A stretch of 64,000 bases of DNA from positions 2,172 through 66,171 of the IMG/VR virus record IMGVR_UViG_641736125_000004; one strand, written 5' to 3'. Shown in pieces: positions 1 to 17,376 of this stretch. Each line of letters starts with the position of its first letter. The first letter of the stretch is position 1. This stretch comes from a virus. Taxonomy: Duplodnaviria > Caudoviricetes. Position numbers and translations under genes: made by a program. The notes beneath the pieces are model-generated. The model saw nothing but the letters and a program-made list of their open reading frames with translations. It did not search any database and had not been told where the DNA came from.

Positions 1-71
1 ATCCGCTCCAGACGGAACCGCGCCGGCGATGGCCGCGAATCTTTCCGCCATCGTAACAATCCAGCCCGGTT

Positions 72-173
72 TATCTCCAGTATCTCCAGCGTTCTCCAAA
101 TCGTTTGGAGACACGCGAAGCCTTACCCCGCAAGGCTTTGCGGCCGATTCAGGCGTTTATCTCCAAATCTCCA
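72..173. repeat. TCTCCA-core iteron-like cluster (putative replication origin of the island)
   Basis: TATCTCCA at 72, 81 and 158, GTTCTCCA at 91, AATCTCCA at 166, inverted TTTGGAGA at 104, and an AAGCCTT..AAGGCTT dyad at about 118-138. Confidence 0.5.
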
Positions 174-351
174 ACTCGTTTTGCATTGAGCGGGCAGACG
201 TCGACCGTCTGCGTCGACCGCAAAGCCAGACGGGGCGCGGCTCTCCGGGATTTGAGGGGCATCAGGGGCGTGTTTTGGACGGGGGTGTCTGCGATGCACC
301 CCGATCGGGCATTGTTGCGCGGGCCGCAAGTGTCGGGGCGGCTGAAAAGCG

Positions 352-438
352 GGGGACCCTGCGTCTAGGGCAAACACGCGGGGGCTCACACCCGCGTTTT
401 CTCTCTAGCCGCGACACCCCAAGGGGGGTCATATTCAT
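352..438 (+). other. cos-like packaging site, homologous to 17292-17376 of the adjacent prophage
   Basis: Three colinear conserved blocks: GGGGACCCT, CACGCGGGGG..C.CACCCGCG..TTT..TCTCTA, and a 17-bp identical AGGGGGGTCATATTCAT. Confidence 0.7.
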
Positions 439-662
439 ACCGAATTGCAGGGAGCCGGCAGTGCGGTGCGAACTCTGAAAAATCGGTGGGAGGCGCGCGC
501 CAAGGGGGGCATATTCGTGCAGTGAGAATGCGGCGAACGCCGCCGCTCGATGGTCCGATCGAGCAGTCTGCAATTTTCGCTAGCACTGCACTTCAGCAAT
601 GTAAGAGGGGGTTGCTGCGGACCTTCGAAGAGCGCGACGAAGCCTTTCGATCGCTCACGAAC

Positions 663-1862
663 TTACTCGGTCCCGTCGATGTCCTCAGCGCGGGGCTTCG
701 CTGCGGGGGAATCCGCAGTCCGCAGTACGGTCTTCTTACAGTGCTTCGGATCGAAGGATTCAATGGGCTCGAACTGCAGATCAAACGGAGTGAAGCGGCC
801 CTTGAACTGCTTCTCGCCGGGCAAAGGTCTGATTTCCCGCCAGTATCCAACATTGTCGTTCGCAATGGGGCCACGTTGGCGGGGCCTCAAGATGCATCTA
901 CATTCGATCTTCGCCCGGATATCGTCCAGCGTGTGAATGTCGGCGTAGTCAGTCGCACACAGCGACATCAAATGGAAAAGACCGCTCAGAGCTGCGGTTG
1001 TCGCAGACAGGCTCGGTTGTTCGCCACTATGAACGAAATCGTTGCGGGCTTTCCTCGCCTCGTTTAATGAGCAATACAACTCTGCGTCGACGATCTTCTT
1101 CTGGAACAAAAGCTCGATACGAGCCGACGTTGTCCAGACGCGATAGTCCTTGAGAAAGCCGCCACGCCGAGGTACCCCCTCCGTCGAAGCTTTCCCTGCC
1201 ACTTCGGCCTCCCAAAGTCGGCTCACTAGTTGTTCGATACTCGTCCATAGACATGTAAGAGCTTCGGCCAGTGAGCCGGAAACAAAGTGGGAGCATCCTG
1301 ACAAGACAATCTCGTGGCTCAGGGGATCGCACTTGTCGACAATCCGTCTGCCTCGTTTTACTGCCTTCGCCAGATCCTTGATTGTTGTTGGCTTCAGATC
1401 AAGTAGGCGAATGTTGTCTATGGAGCTAGCGCTTCGATCACGAAGCGCCGAATGCAATTTCGCCGACGAGCCCGATTCCGGGAAAATTCGAACGTATCCC
1501 GTTTTGTAGAGAACCCCTTGAAAGATGTCGGCTGGGGTTGCCGCTTCCGTATAAATTCCACCGAGAAGCATTTCCAGAAGGACTCGATTGAATATTTGCA
1601 GCGCTTTATCGCGTCGAGAAAATTCCGGAAACGCCGGGAGCGCTAGAGTGCCATCGAAGCCGACGAGCATCGCGTAAGGGGCGACGTTACCGTCGATGAA
1701 GCCGCTCACGCGATTGAGCTTCAGATAGTCGTACGTGCTTCTGTTGATCTGCTCTAGTGTCGGATTCCAGCGATCACGGCGGTCCTTCGCAAACAGCTTG
1801 ATCGGAGCGCTCGCCGCCATGATGAGTGGCGTTCCTTCCGGGATATCATTCTCGGTGGTCAT
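663..1862 (-). CDS. HEPN-domain protein (ApeA-like), candidate anti-phage RNase
   Basis: 399-aa ORF with lower GC. It has a C-terminal RxxxxH motif (RNDFVH) preceded by the helical segment LWTSIEQL typical of HEPN domains. Confidence 0.6.
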   Translation of the reverse strand: MTTENDIPEGTPLIMAASAPIKLFAKDRRDRWNPTLEQINRSTYDYLKLNRVSGFIDGNVAPYAMLVGFDGTLALPAFPEFSRRDKALQIFNRVLLEMLLGGIYTEAATPADIFQGVLYKTGYVRIFPESGSSAKLHSALRDRSASSIDNIRLLDLKPTTIKDLAKAVKRGRRIVDKCDPLSHEIVLSGCSHFVSGSLAEALTCLWTSIEQLVSRLWEAEVAGKASTEGVPRRGGFLKDYRVWTTSARIELLFQKKIVDAELYCSLNEARKARNDFVHSGEQPSLSATTAALSGLFHLMSLCATDYADIHTLDDIRAKIECRCILRPRQRGPIANDNVGYWREIRPLPGEKQFKGRFTPFDLQFEPIESFDPKHCKKTVLRTADSPAAKPRAEDIDGTE

Positions 1863-1912
1863 GTCTCGGGTAGTGAGAGAGTGAGAGGGGGCGCGTGGGT
1901 GATGTTGGCACG

Positions 1913-3127
1913 CTATCGCGCAGACGCGATAGGGATAACTTCCGCCCCGGCCTTAAGGCGATCGAGGTGATCCGCCCAAACCTGCATCATCCGCCTGCGT
2001 TCGGGCAGATATTCGGCGTGGACGTAGGCGGCCGTCACTTGATTTCGTTCGGCGTGTGCCATCTGGCGTTCTACAACGTCCCGGCCGAAGCCGAGTTCAC
2101 GCAGAGCCGTGGCGGCCAGTCCGCGAAACCCGTGCCCCGTCATTCGCGACTTGTAGCCCATGCGATAGAGCGCGTAGAGCATGGTGTTGTTCGAAATATG
2201 GCTCCGGCCTTGCACGCTATAAAACACGAATCGATGCTGGCCGTTGAGCGCGCGGAGCTGGGCGAGCACGTCGAGCGCTTGCCGCGATAGCGGCACGATG
2301 TGCGGGTCGCGCATCTTCATGCGTTCCGGCGGTACGCGCCATTCTGCGGCGGCTTCGTCAAACTCCGACCATTCCGCACGGATCATTTCCGTTGTCCGCA
2401 CAAACGTCAGCGCCATCAGGCGGAGCGCGAGCCGGGTGACTAGGTCGCCTTGGTAAGCATCGATGTCGCGCATGAGTTGCGGGATCTCCGTCGCCTTGAC
2501 GCGGGCCATGTGCTGTACGCCCGGACCTTTCTTCAAGACCGTCTGCGCGTCGATGTCAGCCGCCGGATTCCTGGAGCATCGCCCGGTCATGATTCCGTAC
2601 TGGAAGACCGCGCGAGAGCGCTGGAGAATCCGCTTCGCAGTCTCGCGCACGCCGCGCGCCTCGACTTCGCGAACGATGCTGAGCATCTGTGGCGAGTCGA
2701 TCTCCGCGATCGGGCGAGGGCCGATCTTAGGGAACACGTCGACCTCAAGCGAATTCAGCACCTTCTCCGCGTAGCCGTCGCTCCAGCCCGGACGCTGGGA
2801 GTCGTACCACTCGCGCGCTACCGCTTCGAACGAGTTTGCCGCTGCAATTTCGGCAGCCCGTTTCGCGTCCTTCTTCGCTTCGCCCGGATCGACGCCGGCC
2901 GCGATCTGCTCGCGGGCCTCGTCGCGCTTCTTCCGTGCCGTCGCGAGCGTGACGGCCGGATAGACGCCGAGGGCGAGCGTCTTCTGCTTGCCAAGGAAGC
3001 GGTAGGACAAGCGCCAGTACTTCGCGCCGGTCGGCTGGACGAGCAAGAACATCCCGTTGCCGTCCGTGAGTTTGTACGGGGCCGCGCTGGCCTTCGCGTT
3101 CCGTACCTGTATGTCGGTGAGAGGCAT
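1913..3127 (-). CDS. P4/IntS-family tyrosine integrase
   Basis: N-terminal arm-binding domain MPLTDIQVRNAK..YKLTDGNGMFLLVQPTGAKYWRLSYRF..LALGVYPAVTL. Catalytic residues in FVRTTE, HGFR, MAH and AY. Confidence 0.95.
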   Translation of the reverse strand: MPLTDIQVRNAKASAAPYKLTDGNGMFLLVQPTGAKYWRLSYRFLGKQKTLALGVYPAVTLATARKKRDEAREQIAAGVDPGEAKKDAKRAAEIAAANSFEAVAREWYDSQRPGWSDGYAEKVLNSLEVDVFPKIGPRPIAEIDSPQMLSIVREVEARGVRETAKRILQRSRAVFQYGIMTGRCSRNPAADIDAQTVLKKGPGVQHMARVKATEIPQLMRDIDAYQGDLVTRLALRLMALTFVRTTEMIRAEWSEFDEAAAEWRVPPERMKMRDPHIVPLSRQALDVLAQLRALNGQHRFVFYSVQGRSHISNNTMLYALYRMGYKSRMTGHGFRGLAATALRELGFGRDVVERQMAHAERNQVTAAYVHAEYLPERRRMMQVWADHLDRLKAGAEVIPIASAR

Positions 3128-3181
3128 TGTTGGTATCTGTGTTGTTGGTATCTGCTGATACCAACAACACAGATACCAACA
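3128..3181. repeat. Perfect 25-bp inverted repeat containing four TGTTGGTATC units (integrase arm-type sites)
   Basis: TGTTGGTATCTGTGTTGTTGGTATC-tgct-GATACCAACAACACAGATACCAACA, abutting the integrase ATG. Confidence 0.8.
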
Positions 3182-3293
3182 CTTTCTCCGGCTGTCACTG
3201 AGCAACGTTGGGTAACGATGGGCGCGAGAGGGCCGCCAGACGGGCGTGAGCGGGGAGTTTCTTGCGAATCTTGGGGGAGGTTTGGGGCTTGAC

Positions 3294-3368
3294 TGGTCCC
3301 CCCGACAGGAATCGAACCTGTATCTAGCGCTTAGGAGGCGCTTGTTCTATCCATTGAACTACGGGGAG
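3294..3368 (-). tRNA. tRNA-Arg (anticodon CCT)
   Basis: Reverse complement reads CTCCCCGTAGTTCAATGGATAGAACAAGCGCCTCCTAAGCGCTAGATACAGGTTCGATTCCTGTCGGGGGGACCA: 75 nt, cloverleaf fold, GTTCGA T-loop, encoded CCA. Confidence 0.97.
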
Positions 3369-3390
3369 CGGATAGTTTGAGCGGGATGGA
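3355..3390 (+). repeat. attL core region (36-bp direct repeat, left copy)
   Basis: TGAACTACGGGGAGCGGATAGTTTGAGCGGGATGGA, identical to 50270-50305. It covers the first 14 nt of the tRNA and 22 nt upstream. Confidence 0.9.
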
Positions 3391-3504
3391 TTGAACCCTT
3401 GAAAATCAAGCTCTAAGCCTTGTCCCGCTTGCCTTTCGGCGATTTTCTCCAATCGACTGATGACGCATAATGACATGCGCTGACAGAGGGTTTAACGCCG
3501 CCTC

Positions 3505-3583
3505 TGCTACAATTTTGCTACAAAACCACCCTGTAGCACGCTATGTTCGGACCGCGTTGCTACAGTTTTTCAACGGGGTAGCA
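3505..3583. promoter_or_regulatory. TGCTACA arm-type integrase binding repeats
   Basis: TGCTACAATTTTGCTACA, inverted TGTAGCA, TGCTACAG and GGTAGCA. The same tandem TGCTACAAATTTGCTACA occurs at about 50200 next to attR. Confidence 0.6.
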
Positions 3584-3584
3584 C

Positions 3585-4685
3585 GTGGCGTCAATCATCC
3601 AGATTGGCTCTCGCTGGCGGGCTCAGGTCCGCCGGCTAGGGAGCAAGAGTATATCAAAGACATTCCGAACAAAGGGAGCGGCCGAGGCTTGGGCACGCGA
3701 CATCGAATCGTCGATCGACAAGGGGCGCGAGGCGGCGGTCGAAGAAACCATCACGGTTGGCGAACTGGTGAGGCGCTATCGAGAGGCCAGAAAGGAGTCC
3801 GGCCGACCGATTGGCGAGAAGTCGAATGAACACTACATGCTCGCACGACTAGAAAGTCACTTTGATGATGAAGTAGCCGCGAAGCTGTCAACGCAGCGAT
3901 TGGTCAAGTTCGCTCAATTGCGAAAGAAGGAGGGCGCTGGCCAGTACACCATCGACATGGATATCTCGAAGCTCGGGACCGTTTTCAAGCACATGGCGTC
4001 ACTCCTCGATCTGCGATTGCCGCATGCACCAAGTATCGCGCGGCCGACTCTCGATCACTTGCGGCTTATCGGACCAGGCAACCATCGGAATCGGCGACCG
4101 ACGCGCGATGAGATTGTGAAGATATTCGAGTGGTTCGCGGAGCATCCTGAGCGAGAGCAGGCAGTGCCGGACGTGATTCGTGTCGCTATGAAGAGCGCGT
4201 TCCGTCGCGGCGAATTGTTCCGGCTTACGTGGTCTGATCTGGACGTCGAGCGCCGCCTCGCGCTCGTGCGTGATCGAAAGCACCCTCGGCAGAAGAAAGG
4301 AAACGACGAGTGGGTGCCGTTGATTGGAGACTCGCTCGAAGTACTGCTACGTCAGCCGCGATATCCGGTGCCGCCCGAGTACGAAGCGAAGCGCAAGGCA
4401 GATCCGGCGATCGAGCCGCATCCGAACGAGTTCATATTCCGATTCGACAAGAGCACGGCCAGCAAGTACTTCAAGCGGGCGTGCGTGGACAAAGGAATCG
4501 ACGATTTGCGGCTGCACGATCTTCGGCATGAGGCGACGAGCGCGCTATTCGAGGATGGGTGGGATATCCCGGAGGTGGCGGCCGTTACCGGACACAAGGA
4601 CTGGCGCAACCTGAAGAGGTACACGAATCTGCGACCGGATCAGGTTGCAAAGAAGGGGCAGTTGACGGTCATGAACCGCGATTAG
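3585..4685 (+). CDS. Prophage tyrosine integrase
   Basis: 366 aa. N-terminus MASIIQIGSRWRAQVRRLG, with catalytic motifs FRRGEL, LHDLRH, TGHKD and LKRY. Confidence 0.95.
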   Translation: MASIIQIGSRWRAQVRRLGSKSISKTFRTKGAAEAWARDIESSIDKGREAAVEETITVGELVRRYREARKESGRPIGEKSNEHYMLARLESHFDDEVAAKLSTQRLVKFAQLRKKEGAGQYTIDMDISKLGTVFKHMASLLDLRLPHAPSIARPTLDHLRLIGPGNHRNRRPTRDEIVKIFEWFAEHPEREQAVPDVIRVAMKSAFRRGELFRLTWSDLDVERRLALVRDRKHPRQKKGNDEWVPLIGDSLEVLLRQPRYPVPPEYEAKRKADPAIEPHPNEFIFRFDKSTASKYFKRACVDKGIDDLRLHDLRHEATSALFEDGWDIPEVAAVTGHKDWRNLKRYTNLRPDQVAKKGQLTVMNRD

Positions 4686-4718
4686 TGGAGCCGCGCGGCG
4701 GCGGCCCATGCGCGGCCG

Positions 4719-4949
4719 TCAAGCCGCCTTCCGTCGCGCCTGCGCCGACATTTCATCGAGGTAATCCGCGACGGCATCGTAGGCGGCGAAGCGCCCGCTG
4801 CCCTCCTTGTACGTCGCGATCGGGAACGTCTCGGCGCTAATCTGATTGCGGATAGTTCCCTCCGACATGAGAAGGAGCTGTGCTAGCTGCGCTAACGTCA
4901 TGCGCGGGCCGTACTTCTCAAGTATGTATGCGCGAGTCAGAAGGCTCAT
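4719..4949 (-). CDS. Excisionase / AlpA-like HTH protein
   Basis: 76 aa, MTLAQLAQLLLMSEGTIRNQIS..FP. Last gene of the leftward operon, convergent with int. Confidence 0.75.
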   Translation of the reverse strand: MSLLTRAYILEKYGPRMTLAQLAQLLLMSEGTIRNQISAETFPIATYKEGSGRFAAYDAVADYLDEMSAQARRKAA

Positions 4950-5731
4950 TTGCGTTCTCCCGCGCGAGCCCGGAGCCGATCGAGCCGTTCGAGTTCCGCG
5001 AGGATCAGTGCGGCGGCCTTGACGAGATTGCGACGCTGCGTTGTCGGCTTCCACCAATCGGTGGCCCAAGGCCACGGCGGCGGTGGATCGCCAGCGGGAT
5101 ATGCGAGCGTGTACATGGCATAGCACCCTGCTGCACAGGACATCTCGAGGTCGCCGCATTTATCGTCGTGTTCAGGCGTCCAGCCTTCCTGTTCGATCTG
5201 GCGGCGGCGCTCGATGAGCACGTCGTGAGCAGCGTTGGTTAGTTGTATTGCGATCTGTGCGTCGTTGCTGCCGTTTAGGAGCGATTCAAGCGCGGCCACA
5301 TGCTGCTCGCCGGCTGGATGGCCGGCACATGCGCCGAGCGCAAATTCGATTGCCGCGTTCTGTTCGTGTGTCATCGCGATCGCGGGCGGGGGAGTGGGAT
5401 TTGTGCGGTCGATCTCGCGCAGCAGCGCGGAACGATATTGTCGTATCGTCTGAAACGACATCGAGTATTCGTCGGCGGCGATGAGCAGTCTAAGTCTCGT
5501 GAGCGCTTGGGACGTTGCGCTGCCGGTTGGCTTATTGGGTTCGACTCCATTCAAGGCTTCGCGAAGCTCTGCCGCGCGCGCAGCTCGTGCCCGCATATCA
5601 CGCGATCCTTCGGCCAGCGTGACATAAATCTCGTCATGGTTTTGCCGGTGCGTGTCGATCGTGAGGCGATAGAGCAGATCGCCTTCCTGCAACCAGTTCG
5701 GTGCGGTGTTCTGTTCGTCGTTCATGGTCAT
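4946..5731 (-). CDS. Phage early protein
   Basis: C-terminal DVLIERRRQIEQEGWTPEHDD..WPW..WWKP..RRNLVKAAALILAE domain that is common in phages. ATGA coupling to the next gene. Confidence 0.75.
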   Translation of the reverse strand: MTMNDEQNTAPNWLQEGDLLYRLTIDTHRQNHDEIYVTLAEGSRDMRARAARAAELREALNGVEPNKPTGSATSQALTRLRLLIAADEYSMSFQTIRQYRSALLREIDRTNPTPPPAIAMTHEQNAAIEFALGACAGHPAGEQHVAALESLLNGSNDAQIAIQLTNAAHDVLIERRRQIEQEGWTPEHDDKCGDLEMSCAAGCYAMYTLAYPAGDPPPPWPWATDWWKPTTQRRNLVKAAALILAELERLDRLRARAGERK

Positions 5732-5733
5732 CC

Positions 5734-6180
5734 TCAATTCTGTTCGTGTGGTATCGCCCGGCCGAGCTGCATCAAACCCGTTTCGAGCGTGACGCCGGCC
5801 GCCGCCGCCCACGTGCGAGCGTCCTGCGCTGCCTTGTGCCGTGCGTAGCTGCCGACGTCGTCGGCCATCAGGTCGAGCAGCACGATGTCGGCCGAGTGCG
5901 AGACGTCGCTCACAAGGGCGCGGATCTCGATGCAAAGCGCGTCGAGGCGTGCGTGCATGCCCCTGCGGGCATCCGCAGGGGCTTCGTTTCTCTGGATTGC
6001 TTTTCGCCGCGCACGCGGCGTGTCGTTCTTCTGGATTGCCTTTGCGGGCGCGAGCCCGCGCACACGCTTTGAAACCGCATTGCCGTCGACGCTCGCCAGT
6101 GTGATAGCCGGGCGCTTGTTCGCGCGTTCCCGCTTTCGCGGCAGCGGACGTGGGGTAGAAAGGGCCGGGCGCGGGGTCAT
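5734..6180 (-). CDS. Hypothetical phage protein
   Basis: 148-aa ORF, ATGA-coupled to the upstream gene. Confidence 0.55.
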   Translation of the reverse strand: MTPRPALSTPRPLPRKRERANKRPAITLASVDGNAVSKRVRGLAPAKAIQKNDTPRARRKAIQRNEAPADARRGMHARLDALCIEIRALVSDVSHSADIVLLDLMADDVGSYARHKAAQDARTWAAAAGVTLETGLMQLGRAIPHEQN

Positions 6181-7493
6181 TGGGCTGCCTCCCGCGCCAT
6201 TTCGGGCATCCAGTCGGGGTCGGGCATCGTGAACAGCTTGTCGAGCCACCGCCGAACGCCTGCCATTTCCTTCGCCTTCGAAGCGCTAGTGCTTTCGAGG
6301 GTGCGGGTGAGCACCTGAACCGCAGCCCGGATCGCTTCGACGCGCGTCCTGTACCGGCCGGGGGATTCGCCGTCGATGCGCTTGCATGGCGACGATCCGC
6401 CCGCGCTGTTGAAGGCGTACGAGAAACCGAACTCCCAATCGCCCTCTGCGATCTGCGCGAGCCGAATCTCGACGGACGCGCGCCCGGTGCGCTTCGAGAT
6501 GGGCGCGGACAGGATTTCCGATGGCTCATACACGCCATGCTCGTTTGCCTTGGCGATCGGATATTTCGGCCGACGCGTCGGCACGGCATCGAGCAGGTCT
6601 TCGAAGCCCGTCAACGCGCGATGTACGCCTGCGATCGTGCCCGGCGACAACTTGCCGAAGCCCGGATCGTGCAACACGCTTTGCAGCGCTTGCAAAAGTT
6701 GCTTTGCATGTTGCTCGCCAATCTTCCGTTGAGGCTCGGCGGCGGCCGTTGTCGCGACGCTCTTGGGCGACGCCGTGTGGAGATGCTTTTTCGTGACCTT
6801 CGTCTTGCCCGCGTCTTTCGCTTTCGACAGGCTCGAGACGATCCGCTCCAGCGTCCGTTCCGCGCCGTGCCGTCGTATCTGTTCGATCACGAGCGTGCCG
6901 GAGATGGAGCCGTCTCGGACGAACTGATGAATCTCCGCAGGTGCCTGCTCGAGCAGGCCGACGTCGCGAATGGTTTGATCCGTAACGTTCAGGCGCTTGC
7001 AGATCGTTTTCGTGTCGAGGCCATGTACGTCGCGCAGTTCCGCGACGACCGTGGCGAGGTCGAGCGGAGACGCGCGCTTGCTTTCGTTGCTAAGGTAGCC
7101 GTCGATCACCATCTCGGCGCGTTCAACCGTCTTCGCATCGCGCACGACGACCGGGATCTTGCCGAGGTCCTTTCCCGCACGGATTGCGTTACCAGCGGAG
7201 AGGTAGCGGTGTTGCCCCTTATAGACGTAGATCAGGTCCTTTCCGTCGACTTTCCGGACGTAGCAATGGAGCGGTTGACTCTTGTCGTAGCCGTTGGCGA
7301 TCATCAGCGCGGTGAGGTGCGACACCCACTGTTGATCGACGGGGCGCACGTTGTCGCGTGGATCGTAGTGGAGCTGTTCGTACGGCACCATCCAGAGATC
7401 CGCCGACGTCGCGCCCGCCGCCGCAGCGGCAGCCTTCGCATTGCCGGTGACGATCGGCTCGACGAGCGCGAGCGGTTGGGTGCGGGCGTCCAT
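6177..7493 (-). CDS. ParB/Srx-like domain protein with HTH
   Basis: YDPRDNVR..L..LMIANGYDKSQPL..YVYKGQHRYLSA, followed by HTH LDTKTICKRLNVTDQTIRD. TAATG coupling. Confidence 0.8.
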   Translation of the reverse strand: MDARTQPLALVEPIVTGNAKAAAAAAGATSADLWMVPYEQLHYDPRDNVRPVDQQWVSHLTALMIANGYDKSQPLHCYVRKVDGKDLIYVYKGQHRYLSAGNAIRAGKDLGKIPVVVRDAKTVERAEMVIDGYLSNESKRASPLDLATVVAELRDVHGLDTKTICKRLNVTDQTIRDVGLLEQAPAEIHQFVRDGSISGTLVIEQIRRHGAERTLERIVSSLSKAKDAGKTKVTKKHLHTASPKSVATTAAAEPQRKIGEQHAKQLLQALQSVLHDPGFGKLSPGTIAGVHRALTGFEDLLDAVPTRRPKYPIAKANEHGVYEPSEILSAPISKRTGRASVEIRLAQIAEGDWEFGFSYAFNSAGGSSPCKRIDGESPGRYRTRVEAIRAAVQVLTRTLESTSASKAKEMAGVRRWLDKLFTMPDPDWMPEMAREAAQ

Positions 7494-7942
7494 TACTCGG
7501 ACTCCTGCGGTCGGAGACTGTGAGCGAGTTCCATTGAGCAGTCGAGGATCAGGCGCGACTGCGTTTTCGGTCGCCGAAGCAGGAGATTCGACCAATTCGG
7601 AGCGGTATCAATGCGCTCGACGATCCAGCCGAGCGCGAGAAACGCGCGGATGGCGCGATCGGCCGTCTCGTTGAAAATCCCCGCGCGAACTCGGAGCGCC
7701 CATTTTGCCCGGCCGCTGTAGCGGTATTCGTCGGGTGCGCGGCAGTCTTCGAGGTACATCGAGTAGCCGTCAACGGCAATGTAAACGCCGGTTTCAGCGA
7801 CCAACGCAAGGTCGCGCTCGATCGCTCGGATGTGCTTCTCGGCCTTCTTGAGTTGAGCGAGACGACGCGCATGAATGGCATTCGCGTGAGCGACGATCTC
7901 GTTATACGACGTCGGATGCTTGTAGGTCGTCATGCGCTTCAC
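7493..7942 (-). CDS. Hypothetical phage protein
   Basis: 149-aa ORF with overlapping start/stop codons on both sides. Confidence 0.7.
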   Translation of the reverse strand: MKRMTTYKHPTSYNEIVAHANAIHARRLAQLKKAEKHIRAIERDLALVAETGVYIAVDGYSMYLEDCRAPDEYRYSGRAKWALRVRAGIFNETADRAIRAFLALGWIVERIDTAPNWSNLLLRRPKTQSRLILDCSMELAHSLRPQESE

Positions 7943-8544
7943 GCGGTCCTCCGGTTCTGGATCATCAGTTCGAGTCGCGACACTTCGAGGTCGATGCTCT
8001 GGCGGAACAGGCGCAGGAATCGCAACGTGCGGGTATCCGACCCAAGCAGCGAGTCGACGGAAATCTCAAGCGAGCGGAGATGCGGGAACGAGACGGCGAC
8101 GTGACGTTCCGCGTTTCGCGTGACGATCGTGTGGAGTTCGGGGCGCGTGTGCGCGGATCCGGCGGGCACGGCGGATCGCGACGCATGTCGAGGCGCGAGT
8201 GCGCTGCCGGCATCGTTCGAATAGGTGCCGTCCGCCTGCTTGCAGGGCACCGACAGCGGCGGGGCCGCGTCCGATCCCGTCAGCCAGTACAGGAAACGCA
8301 GGTCGTGCGGGCGCGGTTGGCGGCGCAGCCATCCGCCCCGCGCGAGCTTGTCGATGCATTGCGCAGCCGCGCCCGGCATGTCGGCGAAATGGGTCGTGCA
8401 CACCTCGTCGGACGTCATCGCGTGCGTGGCGTGCCTGAACACGGTCAGGATTCGAGCCGTCAGGTCGGCCCGTTGAGCGGGCGTGAGGTCGACGTATGGA
8501 TTGAGTCGGCGCGGAGCCGCGTTCGGGAGGGCGTTGTCGATCAC
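7939..8544 (-). CDS. Hypothetical phage protein, probable winged-helix
   Basis: RILTVFRH..MTSDEV..AQCIDKLARGGWLRR pattern. GTGA coupling. Confidence 0.6.
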   Translation of the reverse strand: MIDNALPNAAPRRLNPYVDLTPAQRADLTARILTVFRHATHAMTSDEVCTTHFADMPGAAAQCIDKLARGGWLRRQPRPHDLRFLYWLTGSDAAPPLSVPCKQADGTYSNDAGSALAPRHASRSAVPAGSAHTRPELHTIVTRNAERHVAVSFPHLRSLEISVDSLLGSDTRTLRFLRLFRQSIDLEVSRLELMIQNRRTA

Positions 8545-8876
8545 GATGCCTCCCTGATCCTGAACGCGCGCGGCTTCTGCGGGCGGGAGTGCTTTTCCGG
8601 CTCGGCGTGTGTCGCGGCGCGAAGGCGCTTGATCGCGTCCGCACACGTGGGTTCGTCTGGAATCGAGATCTGCTTCGCGGCAATGGTGTTGCCGTCCATG
8701 ATCAGATACTCGATATAGACGCCGTCCACGAGTGGCCGGCGCATGACGACATGCTTGCCGACGAGGATCGGCGACGTCGGAAGCTGGCGATCGCGTTCGT
8801 AACGGGCGACGGTCCGGGGCGACAGCGTGTCCCGGCGCGGGATGCCCGCGTGCTGTGCAGCGTTGATTCTGTGCAT
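8541..8876 (-). CDS. Hypothetical phage protein
   Basis: 111 aa with AAGGAG RBS upstream. Confidence 0.65.
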   Translation of the reverse strand: MHRINAAQHAGIPRRDTLSPRTVARYERDRQLPTSPILVGKHVVMRRPLVDGVYIEYLIMDGNTIAAKQISIPDEPTCADAIKRLRAATHAEPEKHSRPQKPRAFRIREAS

Positions 8877-8927
8877 GGCTTCATCTCCTTTACGCCGAGC
8901 GCGCAAGCCGTCCTCGGCGCGTGAGCG

Positions 8928-9146
8928 TCAGACGTTGGCGTGAAAGGTGGCGGGCTTGTCGGCGACGGGGCCGTTATCCAGCACGTTCGCCGCGATGATC
9001 AGGGCGGCGGCGGCAAAGACGCACTTGAACAGCAGCGACTTTTCCAAGTTACTTTGGCGGGCGGGTTCGGAGGGCGTAACGCGCGGGGCTTGCTCGTCGC
9101 GGAGCCAGTTCCGGCGGGCCTCAGCGTGAAGATCGGTCGGCTTCAT
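8928..9146 (-). CDS. Small phage protein with one hydrophobic helix (first gene of the left operon)
   Basis: 72 aa, GGAG RBS, hydrophobic stretch LLFKCVFAAAALIIAANVL. Confidence 0.6.
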   Translation of the reverse strand: MKPTDLHAEARRNWLRDEQAPRVTPSEPARQSNLEKSLLFKCVFAAAALIIAANVLDNGPVADKPATFHANV

Positions 9147-9188
9147 GGGGTAAATCTCCGGTTGAGCGTCATGTGACGCGACAGGTGG

Positions 9189-9232
9189 AGTATCCATTAA
9201 TGGAAAATGCCCTGTCAATCCATAAATGGATA
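9189..9232 (-). promoter_or_regulatory. PL-like promoter overlapped by two 16-bp palindromic operators
   Basis: On the minus strand, TTGACA (9218-9213), 18 nt, GATACT (9194-9189). Operators TATCCATTAATGGAAA (9191-9206) and AATCCATAAATGGATA (9217-9232). Confidence 0.75.
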
Positions 9233-9274
9233 AGTGCTCCCGGAATAATCCCCGCCGGGTTAGGCGGGGGCGCG

Positions 9275-9730
9275 TTATCGGGAGTTTCGTGGGGTCAGCA
9301 GCAGGGTTGCGGCGTGGCAGGTAAGGACTAGCGCCGCATCAAGCCACGCTGAAGTGTTTAGGTATGCTGCGGCTGCAATTCCGATCGTCGCGGTTGCGAG
9401 GATGCTGGCGGTTCCGCGTTGGCGGGCGAGCCGGTGTGAACGCTGATTCCGCGCGTATTCGATGCGCTCAGCCAATTGATGTGCGCCGGCCAAAACGTCT
9501 TCTGCGGTATCGGCGTCTACGCCTTTGGCGGAGATGGCGATTGTGCCGTCCTCGCGTAGAAGCACGGCAGCGGCGGCCACTGCGGGCGATCGATCGTGGC
9601 GCGCTACCAAATCGCGCAGAAACGCGCGGATGGCGGCCTGCCGAGTTCGTCTTCGTATCGTGGGCAGTTCGTAGACGTTATCGGTTTCGCGTTTTGGTCC
9701 CTCGGATGCGGGTTTTGTGGTTTTGTTCAT
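9275..9730 (-). CDS. Membrane-anchored protein downstream of the repressor
   Basis: 151 aa with two C-terminal hydrophobic segments. Lies between cI and the PL/OL region. Confidence 0.6.
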   Translation of the reverse strand: MNKTTKPASEGPKRETDNVYELPTIRRRTRQAAIRAFLRDLVARHDRSPAVAAAAVLLREDGTIAISAKGVDADTAEDVLAGAHQLAERIEYARNQRSHRLARQRGTASILATATIGIAAAAYLNTSAWLDAALVLTCHAATLLLTPRNSR

Positions 9731-10196
9731 CGCTCAACAATTCGTTCGATAATGGGCGTTGAGCGGCGGCTGACGCGCGCCTCTTCGATCCCGGCGTGGC
9801 CGGAATAACTTCTTCGATGGTCGTCGACCCGTCTTCCTCGGTGGTTGTGGCGGTGGTCTGACTCAGAACAAACTCGATATATCGCTCGATTGCCTTCTTC
9901 TCCGTCTCCGGGAGTTGGGCGTAGCGGACGCGATCGTAGTGAATTACCGATGCATCGTTCGCGTCGTCGATCAGCAGATCGGTAGGGGATATGCCGATCG
10001 CGTTAGCGAGAGATTCCACCACGCGCATCTGCGTGTCTACCTTCCCGGACAGGACTCGATTGACCGAGCTTTGGGAAATTCCGGCGCGCTTGGCGACCTT
10101 TTCTTGCTTGTCCACGTGCGGGTAGTGATCCATGTACCACCGCAGCTTGCGGGCCAAGATCATCCGAAGCGATGACTTCGTGGGCGGCGTTTTCAT
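9678..10196 (-). CDS. CI-like XRE HTH repressor
   Basis: KQEKVAKRAGISQSSVNRVLSGKVDTQMRVVESLANAIGI, divergent from a cro-like gene. No S24 peptidase domain is evident and the start codon is uncertain. Confidence 0.85.
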   Translation of the reverse strand: MKTPPTKSSLRMILARKLRWYMDHYPHVDKQEKVAKRAGISQSSVNRVLSGKVDTQMRVVESLANAIGISPTDLLIDDANDASVIHYDRVRYAQLPETEKKAIERYIEFVLSQTTATTTEEDGSTTIEEVIPATPGSKRRASAAAQRPLSNELLSDEQNHKTRIRGTKTRNR

Positions 10197-10253
10197 GCCG
10201 ACATCTTGCCGAATTTGGATAACCATTGGCGGATGGTTTGCCTTGCGTGTTGG

Positions 10254-10282
10254 TTGAATGAAATTCCTTAAATGGATAAACT
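10254..10282 (+). promoter_or_regulatory. PR-like promoter with operator
   Basis: TTGAAT, 17 nt, TAAACT. The operator ATTCCTTAAATGGATA (10263-10278) matches the OL palindromes. Confidence 0.7.
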
Positions 10283-10311
10283 CGCGGCTGGCCATTGTGA
10301 TTGGGGGCGTT

Positions 10312-10539
10312 ATGAAGACCGGAAGCGAGCCGATTCTTACTGCCGTGCTGCGGCATCTCGACGCGGCAAAGGGCGATTGGCCGGCAATTGCGAAGCAAAG
10401 CGGCGTGCCGTATCAAACCCTCGCGAAGATTGGTGGACGGGTCGTCTCAGACCCTCGCGTCTCGACCGTTCAGGCGCTTCTCGACTGCCTTGGGAAGCGG
10501 TGCGCTGGACAGCGTTCCTACAGTTCCGCCGCCGAGTGA
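10312..10539 (+). CDS. Cro-like HTH regulator
   Basis: 75 aa, WPAIAKQSGVPYQTLAKIG..DPRVSTVQALL. Confidence 0.8.
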   Translation: MKTGSEPILTAVLRHLDAAKGDWPAIAKQSGVPYQTLAKIGGRVVSDPRVSTVQALLDCLGKRCAGQRSYSSAAE

Positions 10540-10627
10540 GCCGATAGGCCCCTCGCGGGACAGAGCGAATCGTACGCCTCCCCCTCGAGCAGCAAAAGAT
10601 TGAAAACGACCGACCACCAATAGTTCA

Positions 10628-11155
10628 ATGACCTGCAGATACGACAGCACCGAATGGCTGGACGTGCTCTATACGTCCGTGCGCAACACGCCCGGCGGCG
10701 TAGCCGACGCCGCCAATCACCTGACGAACCGCCGAGGCAAGGGCATCACGCCGGAGTCGCTTCGTCTGCGCCTGCGCGGCGTCGGCGATAGCCGCCTCTC
10801 GATGGAGATGTTCGAGTTGCTGATCGAGTGGATGCAGGAGAAGAGCGAAGCCGAGGCGCACGCGCTCGATGCATTGCATGCGCTCAACGCTCGTTTCGGG
10901 CTTGTCGCGGAGCGCGTCGACGATCACCACGCGGTCGACGGCCATGAACCGGGAACGATGCATCTCGTGACGACGACGCTCCACTTGCAGGCGCACGTGG
11001 GGAAGGTCGCCGACGACGTGACGCGCGCGCTCGAAGATCAGCGCATCGACGATCGCGAAGCCGAGCAGATCATCGCGACCGGCCGCAAGGGGCAGCGCCT
11101 GTTCCAGCGGCTGATCCATGCCGCCCGTAACCTTGCTGCCCGCCGGCGTCGCTGA
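10628..11155 (+). CDS. CII-like regulatory protein (CP76-like)
   Basis: Follows cro. PGGVADAA..ESLRLRL N-terminus and D.RID.REA.QI C-terminus. Confidence 0.75.
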   Translation: MTCRYDSTEWLDVLYTSVRNTPGGVADAANHLTNRRGKGITPESLRLRLRGVGDSRLSMEMFELLIEWMQEKSEAEAHALDALHALNARFGLVAERVDDHHAVDGHEPGTMHLVTTTLHLQAHVGKVADDVTRALEDQRIDDREAEQIIATGRKGQRLFQRLIHAARNLAARRRR

Positions 11156-11156
11156 C

Positions 11157-11501
11157 ATGCAGCGATTCATGCCCGGCATGGGTTGCTGCCGCGTTGCGCG
11201 CGAGCAGGTGCAGTTGTGTTGCGAACGCCCGTATCAGCTCGCATGCGGCATTGCTGCGCTCGCGTACCGGATCGAAGTCGCTCCGGAGCAGGCCGGACGG
11301 TTGTTCGTCTCCCTGATCTCGACTTTCCCCGATCGCGTTGCGCTGTTTATCGAACGCGCCGCGTTGTCCTGCGCGGCACTGCCGACGAAGACTGAGCGCC
11401 ACGCGTTCCGCAATCAAATCGCGGGCCGTCTCAGTGCGGAGGATCTTGCGATCTTCGACGAATCAATGTCGACCGAGTGGCGACGCCTGCGTGGCAAGTG
11501 A
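11157..11501 (+). CDS. Hypothetical phage protein
   Basis: ORF directly after the CII-like gene. Start uncertain. Confidence 0.5.
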   Translation: MQRFMPGMGCCRVAREQVQLCCERPYQLACGIAALAYRIEVAPEQAGRLFVSLISTFPDRVALFIERAALSCAALPTKTERHAFRNQIAGRLSAEDLAIFDESMSTEWRRLRGK

Positions 11502-11508
11502 CAGGAGA

Positions 11509-11964
11509 TCAGGAATGGCCAATTTGCGTCTTAACGGCAGCCCACGCGAGCGATACGCCCGCCGACAAGGCGGTAGTGACGCCTTGCTTCAGCGCTTCGG
11601 TCGCGCCGTTCCTCGCGCTATCGACAAGATACGAGCCAAGCGTTTGCTTGCCTGTAAGGGACGACGGAGTGGCCTTGAGAATTTCAAGCGCTTTTGCGGT
11701 CAGCACCAATTCGCTGAAAGTCCCCGAATCGAGCTCCCTGTCGTAATCGATGTATCCGGCCCGTTTCAGCCATCGAACGGTATTGCAGAAGAATTCGAGG
11801 GCGGCCGCGATGTCTTGGTCGATGGTGCCGTCGCTGCGAAACATGTTTTCCGCATTGATGCCGTGGTCGCTCGCCGTGATTCCTGTTGCCACAGGGAAAC
11901 GCTCGTACAGGGTCGCAAGCAGTTCTGCAACGAGTAGATCAAATTTCTCAATATTCGAGGACAT
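11509..11964 (-). CDS. Moron-like hypothetical protein, antisense to the early operon
   Basis: 151 aa, lower GC, protein-like sequence (LYERFP..TVRWLKRAGYI..LVLTAKALEIL) with a winged-helix-like pattern. Confidence 0.7.
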   Translation of the reverse strand: MSSNIEKFDLLVAELLATLYERFPVATGITASDHGINAENMFRSDGTIDQDIAAALEFFCNTVRWLKRAGYIDYDRELDSGTFSELVLTAKALEILKATPSSLTGKQTLGSYLVDSARNGATEALKQGVTTALSAGVSLAWAAVKTQIGHS

Positions 11965-12487
11965 GATGAAGGGCTCCAGCGAAGGTTTGAAACAAGGGTT
12001 TGCGTATCGGGCAGAAGGATACTGGAAGAGCTGGTACGGCGACGCCGAAGTGCGCGCCGCGAGCCGCCTACTTGAAATGGCTGATCGCGATACCGCGATT
12101 GAGATTCTGTCCGCGCTATTCACCCGAATCTGCATCTGGGGCTTGGAGGCGCTGCGGATGGAATGTCCGAGGTGCGAGCTCGCGTCGGCCGTTGTCATTT
12201 CCACTCGGCATGCAGGCCCTCGCGCCGATCTTACGCTTGTCGAAATCTGCGACGCGTGTTTTCGCGGAACGATGAGCGGTAGCGAAGCTCGGGTCGCGGT
12301 GATCGGGCTTGTAGACCGGCACCCGCGTTCCGAGATCGTCGAGGCCGTCGAGGCACTTCTTATCCGCATCAAGGCTTTGGGGCGCGAGGCGCTTCGCCGT
12401 CGCTGCTGTGCCTATCGAGGCTGACCAGAAAAGCGACTTTGCAAAGCAGATGAGGTTCGCTCCGTCAGTTAGCACTGGAGACTCGAA

Positions 12488-12667
12488 GTGAATACGAACA
12501 GCACGAGCGGCGGCTTGCGTCGCCGAGCATCCCGCTACCGGCTCTCGCCGTCCGGGCAACAGCTCTACATCGCTGGACGGGCGCGTTGGCGGAACTACTC
12601 GCACCAGTTGGCGCACGATCGTCGCATGGCCGAGCTGGCCGGCATGTACGTATCGGACGCGCGGTGA
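12488..12667 (+). CDS. Small hypothetical phage protein (59 aa, below the ORF track cutoff)
   Basis: GGAG RBS, GTG start, open frame to TGA at 12665-12667. Confidence 0.5.
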   Translation: MNTNSTSGGLRRRASRYRLSPSGQQLYIAGRARWRNYSHQLAHDRRMAELAGMYVSDAR

Positions 12668-12683
12668 TGGACGGGGGTCAGCG

Positions 12684-13268
12684 GTGGAAAAGGATCACAA
12701 CGCATACAGGAGAGTTTATGCAAAAGGGTATTTCGATGGGCTCAAAGCGGCGAGGGCGGGCATGAACCCCGGCCGTCAGCAATCCATTCTGCGCGGCATG
12801 CCGTCTGTCGCGCAGAAGGTTTTCGAGTTCGTGCCGATTCAAGAATCGTGGACGACCAAGCAGATCGTGGCGCAGGTGAAAGCCACGACCAAGGCGCAAA
12901 TCGATTCACGAACGGCGGACAACTGCCTCGCGCGGTTGAAGGATGCCGGGCTCGTTCGCGAGGTCACGCGCGGCGAATTTCGACGCGTCCGGCTCGCGAC
13001 GTGTGGCGTCGAGGCCGATGCGGTCGACGACGCGGAGCCGGAAGTTCGTGCGCCCGTAAGCGAATCGCTGAACAGGCGCGACAGCAGCGCATCGCCGATC
13101 GATTTGCTGTCGGGCATCGCAAACCGCCTGACCGCGACCGTGGAATCGATACGCGAGATCGCCGTCGAGATCGAAACCGCCGCGCTCGTGATCGAGGAAC
13201 AGCAGGCGGCGAACGGCCGCGAGGCGGACAAGCTTCGCCAGTTGCAAGCGCTGCTCAAGACGCTGTAG
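12684..13268 (+). CDS. Hypothetical phage protein (wHTH plus coiled coil)
   Basis: 194 aa, AQKVFEFVP..CLARLKDAGLVREV. Confidence 0.7.
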   Translation: MEKDHNAYRRVYAKGYFDGLKAARAGMNPGRQQSILRGMPSVAQKVFEFVPIQESWTTKQIVAQVKATTKAQIDSRTADNCLARLKDAGLVREVTRGEFRRVRLATCGVEADAVDDAEPEVRAPVSESLNRRDSSASPIDLLSGIANRLTATVESIREIAVEIETAALVIEEQQAANGREADKLRQLQALLKTL

Positions 13269-13389
13269 CGACGCGAGCCAAGTTGCTTTGCGTTCGCTGC
13301 ATCGCATCTGTTTTTTCCCATTTCTTTCCCCTCGCCGTGCGTTCGGATTCGCGCGCGCGAGGGATTGCTTTCAAGAGGTGAATATCCCT

Positions 13390-15882: not shown

Positions 15883-15946
15883 TCGCGTTCGGCGCGCCGC
15901 GATGCTGTTCGCGGCGCGCCGCGTTGCCCGCTTTGGCGCGCCGTGG

Positions 15947-16086
15947 ACGTCCCGTGTCCCAGCGTCCCAAAGCACGGCTTCGTGTGCGGGTGCGGGCGCG
16001 CGACATGCGCGACGTGAGCGGCGCATGTCGCGGGCGCGCGCGCCCCTGCAAGCCTTTTCCCTTGGGACATTGGGACGTTAGGACGT
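15947..16086. repeat. Inverted GTCCC/GGGAC iterons, putative phage origin
   Basis: Three GTCCC units (15947-15970) face TTGGGAC, TTGGGAC and TTAGGAC (16062-16084), around a CGCGACATGCGC..GCGCATGTCGCG dyad, just after the primase-helicase. Confidence 0.6.
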
Positions 16087-16099
16087 TAAGGAGAAAGCG

Positions 16100-16873
16100 A
16101 TGATGGATCTGATGGAGCGGGCGGGCGTCGCGATGAGCGTGCGTGGTCAGTTCACCGACCCGATTGCCGATCCGAAAGTTACTTTGGGCGCGCTCGCCTT
16201 TGCGAACGATCTCGGTCGGTTGCTGGTTCGGATCAAGGTCGCGCAGCAGGCGAAGCCCGAAATGATTCGACGCGCGATGCTGCTGTTGGCGCAGATGATG
16301 CGAACGTCGGGGCGATTCAAGCGCGGAAAGTTTTCCGGGTTGAAGCGCGATGAGCGCCGCGAACAACGCGCCGGTCATGCGGTCGAGCGTGCGCAAGTGG
16401 ATGTGATCGAACGATTCGCGCTGCGGCTGCTCGACGAGTGGGTCAACGACCAATGTGGGACGTGCGAGGGCCGTGGCGTTGTTCGGCGCTCAACCGAACA
16501 ACCGAAGGCGACGATACGGTGCCTCGTCTGTGCAGGGCACGGGAAGGTATGTGTCGCGGAGGAGCGGATTCCGTTCTTTCACGGCCGCAATGGACCGCTG
16601 GTATTTAGGGAGTACGAAGGATGTGACGTTTGCAGCGGTGTGGGGCGCGTGCAGATCGCTGCGCCCGCAACTATTCACGGGCGGCAGATTTGCCCTGATT
16701 GTGGCGGGGCCGGTAAGCGGCCGATCGAAGAAGCGGCGCGAGCGCAGGCCCTTGGTGTGACGCTCAAGGAGTATCGGCGCAATTGGTCGTGGCGCTTTCA
16801 CGACATGCTTGCGCTGCTCGATGCGATCAATGGCTCTGTGAATGACACGCTGCGCTGCCAATTGCGAGAATGA
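16100..16873 (+). CDS. Q-like late antiterminator with DnaJ-type zinc finger
   Basis: Four CxxCxGxG repeats. Lies between replication and packaging modules. Confidence 0.7.
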   Translation: MMDLMERAGVAMSVRGQFTDPIADPKVTLGALAFANDLGRLLVRIKVAQQAKPEMIRRAMLLLAQMMRTSGRFKRGKFSGLKRDERREQRAGHAVERAQVDVIERFALRLLDEWVNDQCGTCEGRGVVRRSTEQPKATIRCLVCAGHGKVCVAEERIPFFHGRNGPLVFREYEGCDVCSGVGRVQIAAPATIHGRQICPDCGGAGKRPIEEAARAQALGVTLKEYRRNWSWRFHDMLALLDAINGSVNDTLRCQLRE

Positions 16874-16879
16874 AACGTC

Positions 16880-17076
16880 TTCCATTCCAAGAGCGGATCG
16901 CGTAAACTTCGCACATCCTTTACCGCGTCACTGGATATTCGCTGGCACCGCGCGTTAGTCGTGCAAACCTCTCGGGACAAAACAACGATACGAGGAGCCC
17001 GTTAGGTCGTGTGGGGGCGTTCGTCCCTACGAAATGAATTCCAAAGCCCTGAGTGCGAAAGCCCTCGGGGCTTTTT
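16880..17076 (+). promoter_or_regulatory. PR'-like late promoter, leader and terminator
   Basis: TTCCAT, 17 nt, TAAACT (16880-16908), then the hairpin AAAGCCCTGAG..CTCGGGGCTTTTT (17043-17076). Confidence 0.5.
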
Positions 17077-17092
17077 GCATTGGGGCGCTGAA

Positions 17093-17281
17093 ATGCGAAG
17101 CGAGTCGGCCAATGGCGGGCCGGGTGAAGTCTGGTCCGCGTGGGATGAGGATCGAAGCACGGGGCGCGTGACCGCGCGCGGTTTCGTATTCGACGATGCG
17201 ATGGACCGCATCGTGTGGGCGATGGACCGAGCGGGCGATCGCGCGGTCGCGGTGCTCGCGGTCGGGGTCGACGCTGCCTAG
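17093..17281 (+). CDS. Small hypothetical protein
   Basis: 62 aa, MRSESANGGPGEVWSAWDED.., first ORF of the late region. Confidence 0.4.
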   Translation: MRSESANGGPGEVWSAWDEDRSTGRVTARGFVFDDAMDRIVWAMDRAGDRAVAVLAVGVDAA

Positions 17282-17291
17282 AAGTTAGGCA

Positions 17292-17376
17292 GGGGACCCT
17301 ATGGTGCGGGCGCACGCGGGGGTGCGCACCCGCGCTTTTTCTCTACTGTTGAATGACCTAGGGGGGTCATATTCAT
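17292..17376 (+). other. Predicted lambda-type cos site
   Basis: GGGACCCT (compare lambda cosQ GGGTCCT), then ACGCG-GGGGTGCGCACC-CGCGCTTTTTCTCTA (compare lambda ACG-GGGCGGCGACCT-CGCGGGTTTTCGCTA), immediately upstream of terS. Confidence 0.75.

Follow-up and report, generated by a model that had tools for sequence, protein, structure and literature searches.

Positions 352–516 of the stretch of DNA analysed here (the window; 64,000 nucleotides, bases 2172–66171 of one 66,171-bp contig with 64% G+C, 2,171 bases of which lie to the left of the window) probably form the signal by which a compact, integrative satellite of phages is packaged, a reading to which we give a probability of roughly 0.6. 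In sequence the segment is a copy of what, with similar confidence, we read as the cosQ–cosN part of the cos region that precedes the small terminase gene (terS) in the neighbouring prophage and in the whole family of that phage, and the island family and the phage family seem on the whole to be a cos-type satellite and helper of Burkholderia. The island had been proposed to be a satellite in a preliminary description made from the window; every computational test run supported this, pointing to a cosQ–cosN-like copy of phage DNA in a compact island with alpA, primase and origin. Observed are the sequence copy, its conservation in blocks, its resemblance to lambda and PS3 cos, the genes of the island, its distribution and its co-occurrence with the phage; we infer that the site is cut, that the island is packaged in dependence on the helper and that the two boxes described below have a role in this.

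The island copy of the element lies on the + strand and opens with a cosQ-like block (GGGGACCCT, 352–360), followed by a spacer (361–376) which, judged from the phage copies, is constrained in length and free in sequence. A cosN-like dyad (CGCG-GGGGCTCACACC-CGCG, 377–396), which also folds as a terminator-like hairpin, is followed directly on its 3' side by a T-rich run (TTTTCTCTCTA, 397–407) and, after an interval, by box 1 (422–438), a 17-nt AGGGGGGTCATATTCAT identical to the box before terS in the phage. Box 2 (502–516), a degenerate copy reading AAGGGGGGCATATTC, is specific to the island and is the final conserved feature of the backbone before a slot for cargo genes. The corresponding cos region of the prophage (17292–17376, + strand) consists of GGGGACCCT at 17292–17300, the dyad at 17315–17334, the T-run at 17335–17345 and the box AGGGGGGTCATATTCAT at 17360–17376. 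The preliminary description had aligned 352–438 with 17292–17376 block by block, had placed a second degenerate box at 502–516 and had noted that the terS start is absent from the island copy; all three statements were borne out, and all letters and coordinates given there were present in the sequence. In the phage the box runs into the start codon of terS (ATG at 17375), whereas the corresponding codon of the island is ATA and opens no ORF; the letters that follow the 17-nt box are AC in the island and GCC in the phage. In a MAFFT alignment the similarity between island and phage ended directly past the box.

The element is confined to these places in the window. The 20-nt dyad pattern CGCGGGGG-NNNN-CACCCGCG was present at 377–396 and 17315–17334, giving four matches (two sites on both strands), a number equalled by 0 of 100 shuffles, and a T-rich run ending in TCTCTA directly followed the dyad in both copies. 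A 15-mer of the box, searched with up to three mismatches through the 64 kb, matched at 422, 502 and 17360 only, and the looser motif GGGGG-N0-3-CA[CT]A[TA] was found at the same three places only. With word-7 blastn of the island part against the rest of the contig, 375–441 matched 17313–17379 (76% identity, E 3e-7); this was the second-best match after the att repeat of the prophage, and all others had E values of 0.007 or more. The cos-like pair is the sole significant DNA match between island and phage on the contig apart from that repeat.

Two-fold symmetry of the dyad is present in both copies, and the 12-nt 5' cohesive ends predicted within it, which are symmetric in the dyad and were placed by alignment to lambda only, would lie at 381–392 in the island and at 17319–17330 in the phage. 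The phage ends lie one base to the right of the 17318–17329 given in the preliminary description. The central four letters of the dyad are CTCA in the island versus TGCG in the resident phage; CTCA was found at the centre in 4 of 98 phage copies among the matches listed. Contig ends at the predicted nick were looked for in 31 metagenome stretches and found in none. Three RNA runs and one RNA contig set of other strains, compared with positions 1–20000, gave no coverage of this region, most of the island and prophage being absent from those strains.

The prophage (about 47 kb) lies to the right of a tRNA-Arg(CCT) gene (3294–3368, − strand), with the island at the 3' end of this tRNA and the prophage starting at its 5' end, and is bounded by an imperfect direct repeat (3345–3429/50260–50344, 81% identical). 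Among its genes are those for an integrase, a ParB-like protein, repressor-like and CII-like regulators, a VapE-type primase and a Q-like antiterminator (16100–16873, + strand; phrog_127, E 3e-32; DnaJ-type CXXCXGXG zinc finger). A small conserved gene (17009–17281) lies between the Q-like gene and the cos region, and the phage copy of the element is placed directly upstream of terS (17375–17944, + strand; phrog_57, E 8.5e-31; weak N-terminal HTH matches) and the large terminase gene of the GpA (lambda A) family (17781–19895, + strand; GpA_ATPase 8.6e-72, GpA_nuclease 6.8e-83). Of the named phages, Burkholderia phage vB_HM795 is nearest (terL 94.5% identical in DNA), and in it, too, the element precedes terS; its record is circular and opened at terL, that is, with arbitrary ends, and its paper is silent on termini. 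A study of 82 other Burkholderia phages, this phage type not being among them, found no fixed termini. The record of phage Mica opens inside an apparent terS reading frame.

For the survey of related phages, IMG/VR was searched with the exact first block and dyad (pattern 1; 67 stretches) and with the first block and T-run as anchors (pattern 2; at least 113 stretches); the patterns permitted spacers of 8–20 nt. A terS homologue started 84–86 nt past the element in 60 of the 67 pattern 1 stretches and was followed by a terL homologue; the rest were five islands, one stretch cut by the end of the locus and one phage (L067) with a different packaging module. Pattern 2 added at least 38 loci, all of them phage copies with variant dyads, which brings the related phage contigs that have the element to at least 98. 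The search patterns account in part for the constancy of the blocks from phage to phage. The spacer between block and dyad measured 15 nt in 73 and 14 nt in 6 of the 79 unique phage copies among the matches listed, and its sequence occurred in 53 distinct versions with a mean pairwise identity of 0.52; fixed spacing combined with free spacer sequence is the pattern expected of two sites recognised by proteins.

We read the element as the cosQ and cosN of a lambda-type cos. The whole lambda genome (NC_001416; circularised, 50.5 kb, both strands) was searched with a profile made of 102 unique elements. The top match (E 0.12, next 2.2; the score alone is not significant) spans the cohesive-end junction, with the dyad set against cosN and the T-run of the element against the T-run behind cosN; the chance of a top match falling within about 25 nt of the junction in a search space of about 101 kb is of the order of 5 in 10,000. 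The block GGGGACCCT of the island aligns with a GGGTCCT-containing block of lambda and of Marinobacter phage PS3, and the lambda block aligned here is one that we take to be cosQ. In PS3, whose large terminase is 53% identical to that of the window phage, a block identical to lambda ACGGGTCCTT, a 22-nt spacer, a G-rich 12-mer and CGCAGATTTTTCGC were found about 60 nt before terS. The score of the PS3 and lambda alignment exceeded those of all 1000 shuffles, and the element profile matched the PS3 site with E 0.028; on these alignments PS3 is a bridge between the Burkholderia element and lambda cos. When lambda, PS3, two Burkholderia phages, L067 and the island were aligned together, all four blocks were collinear. 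Taken on its own, the likeness to lambda is weak: 6 of 500 and 11 of 1000 shuffles scored as high as the window phage against lambda, 63 of 1000 as high as PS3 against the window phage and 72 of 1000 as high as PS3 against the island, and the island alone gave no cos alignment in pairwise comparison with lambda.

The preliminary description had likened the blocks to lambda cosQ, cosN and cosB. The cosQ–cosN part of this comparison is supported for the phage copy, which precedes terS and a GpA terminase as lambda cos does and is weakly alike in sequence; the assignment of the 17-nt box to cosB is uncertain. In the phages, which have one copy of the box where the islands have two, it overlaps the Shine-Dalgarno sequence and start codon of terS and may be kept there for translation. 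A search for cosB repeats in this phage family and for a second box inside the phage terS gene found neither. Exchange of the region to the right of the dyad is seen in L067, which retains the upstream genes, the first block (cosQ) and the dyad (cosN) and has, directly past the right edge of the dyad, a different sequence with GTCAAC/GTTGAC repeats. Its terS is related to that of the window phage in the C-terminal part only (28% identity over 79 aa), and its terL, also of the GpA family, is only 31% identical. This swap is in line with the modular picture of lambda-type cos in the passages of PMC6739421 used here, in which cosQ and cosN are common and cosB and TerS specificity are exchangeable.

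Since the dyad and T-run form a GC-rich stem-loop followed by a U-run, and both copies were called terminator-like in a terminator scan, the shared core might instead be an intrinsic terminator which gates the late/terminase operon behind the Q-like antiterminator and is not a packaging site; its role in the island would be to close the primase operon ahead of the convergent int or cargo genes, the likeness having arisen by recombination with phages. The hairpins of the two copies are stable (−21 and −22.9 kcal/mol, z −4.2 and −2.1), that of the phage lies downstream of the Q-like gene (420 nt upstream of it), and in cargo-less islands the hairpin stands between convergent genes. Some dyad variants among the phage matches listed preserve pairing (G-C to C-G at positions 8 and 13 in 4 copies; T-G and G-T wobbles), but others among them break it (G/G in 2 copies; the left arm CACGG, with an A-C mismatch, in 14 of 38), and symmetric paired changes would arise just as readily at a protein site with two-fold symmetry, so that they do not decide between an RNA stem and such a site. 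A terminator needs neither GGGGACCCT at a fixed 14–15 nt nor a box about 25 nt downstream, yet the island keeps both block and box although it has no gene to regulate there. Lambda and PS3, moreover, share the T-run after cosN without a strong hairpin, and L067 swaps terS and the cosB-like repeats exactly at the right edge of the dyad. We therefore consider a terminator in place of a packaging site unlikely; the dyad and T-run may double as a transcription terminator, which is compatible with a cos role.

The island that carries the putative packaging signal is cut by the contig end. The 2,171 bases to the left of the window hold the 3' part (694 codons, + strand) of a Toprim/DUF927 primase-helicase gene with its stop 85 nt before the window; because the contig ends inside this gene, it lacks the left portion of the island, and alpA was seen only in relatives. 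About 160 nt past the primase stop begins an iteron array (74–173, + strand) with five TCTCCA (74, 83, 93, 160 and 168) and one inverted TGGAGA (106), likely the replication origin of the island; the six hexamers compare with a mean of 0.05 per 120-nt shuffle, and the array is almost invariant in six island copies. Beyond the element follow a cargo gene, orf399 (663–1862, − strand; 399 aa; GC 0.55 versus 0.62 in the backbone), placed between box 2 and the integrase stop and matching no family in Pfam, PHROG, NCBIfam and PADLOC searches, and a tyrosine integrase gene (1913–3205, − strand) with Arm-DNA-bind_3, Phage_int_M and Phage_integrase domains. Of the features typical of phage-inducible chromosomal islands (PICIs), an integrase at one end with site-specific insertion was found, with the second att tentative, as were AlpA and a primase/replicase with adjacent origin, the primase and iterons on this contig and alpA in the related islands L078 and L080.

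Relatives were collected with the primase, which gave 31 loci in species-representative genomes; 15 of these were Burkholderia/Paraburkholderia islands (74–99% identity), and more than 10 named Burkholderia species share a primase that is 94–99% identical. The element, about 440 nt past the primase stop, matched exactly in 12 of the 15 genomic islands and was present as variants in L084 and L089; L086 was counted neither as exact nor as variant. Alignment of 18 island copies (3 of 21 were dropped, the anchor being absent) gave the first block exactly in 16, the dyad exactly in 16, box 1 of the CATATTCATA form in 15 and box 2 (G-run plus CATA) in 17, and several unrelated versions of the sequence between T-run and box 1. 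The backbone is joined to different integrases at four tRNA targets (Arg, 4; Leu, 4; Thr, 2; Ser, 1), with one of the 12 scanned island loci having no tRNA. The stretch common to the islands measures only about 5–6 kb and stops just past box 2: homology with three relatives breaks at window positions 513–522 and resumes at 1893–1907, with nothing between in L089, which makes orf399 a cassette inserted in a slot that box 2 and the integrase stop delimit.

These alignments also bear on whether the island copy is a functionless relic, for example of a lost island terS start or of past recombination with a phage, that survives through recent divergence. The change of ATG to ATA with no reading frame behind it would fit such an origin, as would the close relationship of the islands, evident in the primase, and island spacer variants that resemble different phage types and thus suggest exchange. 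A relic would however not be expected to retain blocks and spacing where the spacers have diverged to unrelated versions (L084, L089), to occupy a constant place before the cargo slot across four integrase/tRNA types or to have gained a second box and kept it in 17 of 18 islands, and we regard this explanation as very unlikely.

The missing left part of the satellite candidate was judged from near-identical islands. L080 (B. latens) is collinear with the first 5,539 nt of the contig at 96.6% and served as a stand-in; L080 and L078 contain alpA, small orphan ORFs (the conserved ones of about 92, 100, 115 and 108 aa), a 958-residue PriCT-2/Toprim/DUF927 protein and, at the left, an accessory region (in L080 with AbiU2, a resolvase and a PADLOC candidate), beyond which chromosomal genes begin (an SDR gene in L080, T6SS genes in L078). 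The order in the relatives is alpA, orphan ORFs, primase, iterons, cos, cargo slot, int and tRNA. Genes for capsid, tail, lysis or terminase did not turn up in the island relatives, and the size of the island is roughly 9–14 kb, with the left att tentative (12–18 nt repeats only). The preliminary description had proposed a search of the left flank for alpA, primase, any capsid-size or terS genes and the second att; in the near-identical islands alpA, primase and origin were recovered in a compact element with no capsid or terS genes, and the second att is tentative only. A decayed prophage, also considered for the island, was rejected on account of the backbone of about 5–6 kb with no structural genes. 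No Rpp-, Sid-, Psu- or TerS-like island gene was recognised in searches of Pfam, PHROG, NCBIfam, PADLOC, PDB sequences and the ESM Atlas; phmmer of terS against the island ORFs gave only E > 0.7, and psu, sid and delta (Pfam/PHROG families) were absent from the island ORFs of L078 and L080. AlphaFold models of the 108-aa and 115-aa island ORFs had a pLDDT of about 61, too poor to use.

The defence-type cargo of relatives (AbiU2 and the PADLOC candidate of L080), the variable slot adjoining the element and the two direct boxes, which could bind a phage protein, would also suit an element acting against the phage, as a decoy titrating TerS/terminase or a sensor of helper late proteins, and forming part of a defence island that itself goes unpackaged. 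This we hold to be highly improbable: integrase, AlpA, a replicase of its own and an origin are all present in the island, and species share its backbone at 94–99% identity, which points to a mobile element that must leave the cell, and known satellites couple interference with packaging in the passages of PMC6739421 used here.

For the spread of islands and phages, 94 Burkholderia species genomes were scored (one of 95 was not scorable), an island being called when the primase-end/ori/cos stretch reached at least the dyad (our own classification from the match table). An island with cos was found in 25, the phage packaging region in 25 and both in 12 (odds ratio 4.0, p 0.008, kinship among genomes being ignored); looser calls with two or three diverged or partial islands added gave odds ratios of 3.1–3.3 (p 0.02–0.04). 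The phage was absent from 13 of the 25 island-bearing genomes. Island and phage are far apart in most genomes that have both; the side-by-side layout recurs in one genome (G010, about 18 kb apart on one contig) and on one IMG/VR contig (island and phage loci L009 and L052). Box 1 equals the box of the resident phage in the window but differs in the L009/L052 pair.

In the proposed mechanism, a helper of the Burkholderia temperate GpA-terminase phage family would be induced in, or infect, the cell, and the island would be excised by its own integrase and AlpA and replicate from the iteron origin by its own PriCT/Toprim/DUF927 primase-helicase. The helper terminase would then nick the dyad at the predicted ends (381–392) and fill helper capsids with island DNA, probably in multimeric form given that a capsid-size gene did not turn up. 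Starting at cosN, packaging would pass the two boxes, the cargo slot and int in turn and finish at cosQ. A fuller version of this scheme, in which these undescribed satellites of the Burkholderia cepacia group would have copied only cosQ/cosN of the helper, the duplicated G-run/CATAT boxes would be a private cosB read by a conserved orphan protein that is analogous to Rpp in function but unlike it in sequence, and the unusually perfect cosN dyad would also be a Q-sensitive terminator in phage and island alike, seems doubtful.

If the satellite reading is true, it would provide a concrete satellite/helper system in a group other than the enterobacteria, vibrios and Gram-positive cocci on which nearly all studies have centred, and would extend the lambda cosQ–cosN layout to distant GpA-terminase phages. 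The islands are common (about a quarter of the sampled Burkholderia species genomes), and a backbone near-identical across many species points to ongoing phage-mediated transfer; they are a factor to weigh when temperate or therapeutic phages are used against Burkholderia. With orf399 and other unknown genes in the slot by cos, and defence-type genes there in relatives, the slot is a place to seek new anti-phage systems.

Among known systems, a close comparison is with the E. coli PICI EcCICFT073 (helpers lambda and 80), which has helper-like cosQ and cosN and a different cosB (Fillol-Salom et al. 2019, PMC6739421; passages used here). As far as these passages go, the Burkholderia island resembles it in its integrative nature, its int, alpA and primase/replicase and its lack of structural genes, in having cosQ/cosN like those of the helper candidate and a different downstream (cosB) region, and in having a helper candidate with lambda-type TerS and GpA terminase; some E. 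coli cos-PICIs described there also carry two cos-related sites. It differs in that no Rpp homologue or TerS-like protein was recognised, in host genus and orphan ORFs and in being a system known from sequence alone, and its phage has head genes of the lambda type together with tail ORFs of sheath and tube size, unlike the helpers of EcCICFT073. P4 shares core cos with P2 and has a defence hotspot next to cos (Ziermann and Calendar 1990, cited in PMC9122126, of which passages were used). Here too the cos core is, apart from the att repeat, the only DNA common with the helper candidate, a cargo/defence slot lies between cos and int, and a large primase-helicase, alpA and integration at a tRNA are found; in contrast to P4, no psu, sid or delta was found in the Burkholderia islands L078 and L080, the terminase is of the lambda GpA type and not of the P2 type, and cos follows the primase gene and origin.

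Like lambda cos, the phage element comprises a cosQ-like block, a spacer of about 20 nt, a two-fold-symmetric G-rich site and a T-run, followed by the small and large terminase genes; the similarity is weak, the distance from dyad to terS start is about 40 nt and not 190 as in lambda, the dyad is far more perfect, and no R-type repeats or IHF site were identified in it. The PICMI satellites of Vibrionaceae, in the parts of PMC10803314 used here, likewise have minimal genes, no capsid-remodelling genes and concatemer packaging; a similar fate would befall an island of 9–14 kb in a capsid sized for about 47 kb, although PICMI is a different satellite family with virulent helpers. The 'Type C PICI' class of SatelliteFinder (de Sousa et al. 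2023, PMC10085698) is defined in the passages used here by int, AlpA and primase/replicase, which the islands fit; these passages mention a putative PICI in Burkholderia in passing, set the Type C class aside as uncertain and give no cos site or helper for Burkholderia. The supplements of that paper may list these very islands, and in the library searched no published account of a Burkholderia satellite that has a cos site or a named helper turned up. By analogy, the Burkholderia system would probably work like the E. coli cos-PICIs and P4 without the defining accessory genes of either. It is credible that the satellite and its helper family are new and that their kind is one already known from P4 and the E. 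coli cos-PICIs.

On either side of the prophage lies one copy of an imperfect direct repeat (window 3345-3429 and 50260-50344; 81% over 85 nt) with an identical core of 37 nt. This repeat spans the first dozen bases of the tRNA-Arg(CCT) gene (3294-3368, minus strand) together with sequence upstream of the tRNA, which places the prophage at the 5' side of the gene. One tRNA-Arg(CCT) gene is thereby associated with two elements, the prophage at its 5' side and the island at its 3' end. In two related island loci (L085 and L089) homology was found to extend beyond the tRNA, into a related integrase. In the early region of the prophage, the integrase is adjoined by two overlapping minus-strand reading frames (4946-6589 and 6177-7595), a large ParB-like gene (phrog_1033) and a 547-codon ORF, the C-terminal half of which matches several unknown PHROGs.

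The variable cargo region of the island, between the second box and the integrase stop, contains, as a cassette adjoining cos, orf399 (663-1862, minus strand; 399 aa), for which searches of Pfam, PHROGs, NCBIfam and PADLOC gave no match. At 0.55, the G+C content of orf399 is lower than that of the surroundings (0.62), and the gene is also present in the near-identical island of B. latens (L080) with 99% identity; orf399 is an anti-phage candidate by position only. In L080, the left accessory region (1100-6800) encodes AbiU2 (HEPN), a serine resolvase and a match to the PADLOC candidate PDC-M36A; located ahead of alpA, it would be a second variable region.

Upstream of the prophage cos element (17292-17376), a Q-like antiterminator gene (phrog_127; 16100-16873) with DnaJ-type CXXCXGXG zinc-finger repeats was identified. 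Among relatives, inserted genes alter the spacing between the Q-like gene and the cos element, which is 455 nt at its shortest and about 2,260 nt at its longest. A related IMG/VR phage stretch with a different packaging module (L067) retains the cosQ-like block and the dyad but has a different small terminase, and in this region (L067 1900-1995) three GTCAAC/GTTGAC repeats in the interval from the dyad to the small terminase gene look like TerS-binding (cosB-type) elements. For Burkholderia phage Mica, which has a GpA-type terminase, cos was reportedly predicted by PhageTerm, with a 13-nt overhang. The Mica record (ends L073/L074) begins within the apparent N-terminal helix-turn-helix coding part of the small terminase gene, and for this reason the annotated terS start of Mica looks truncated.
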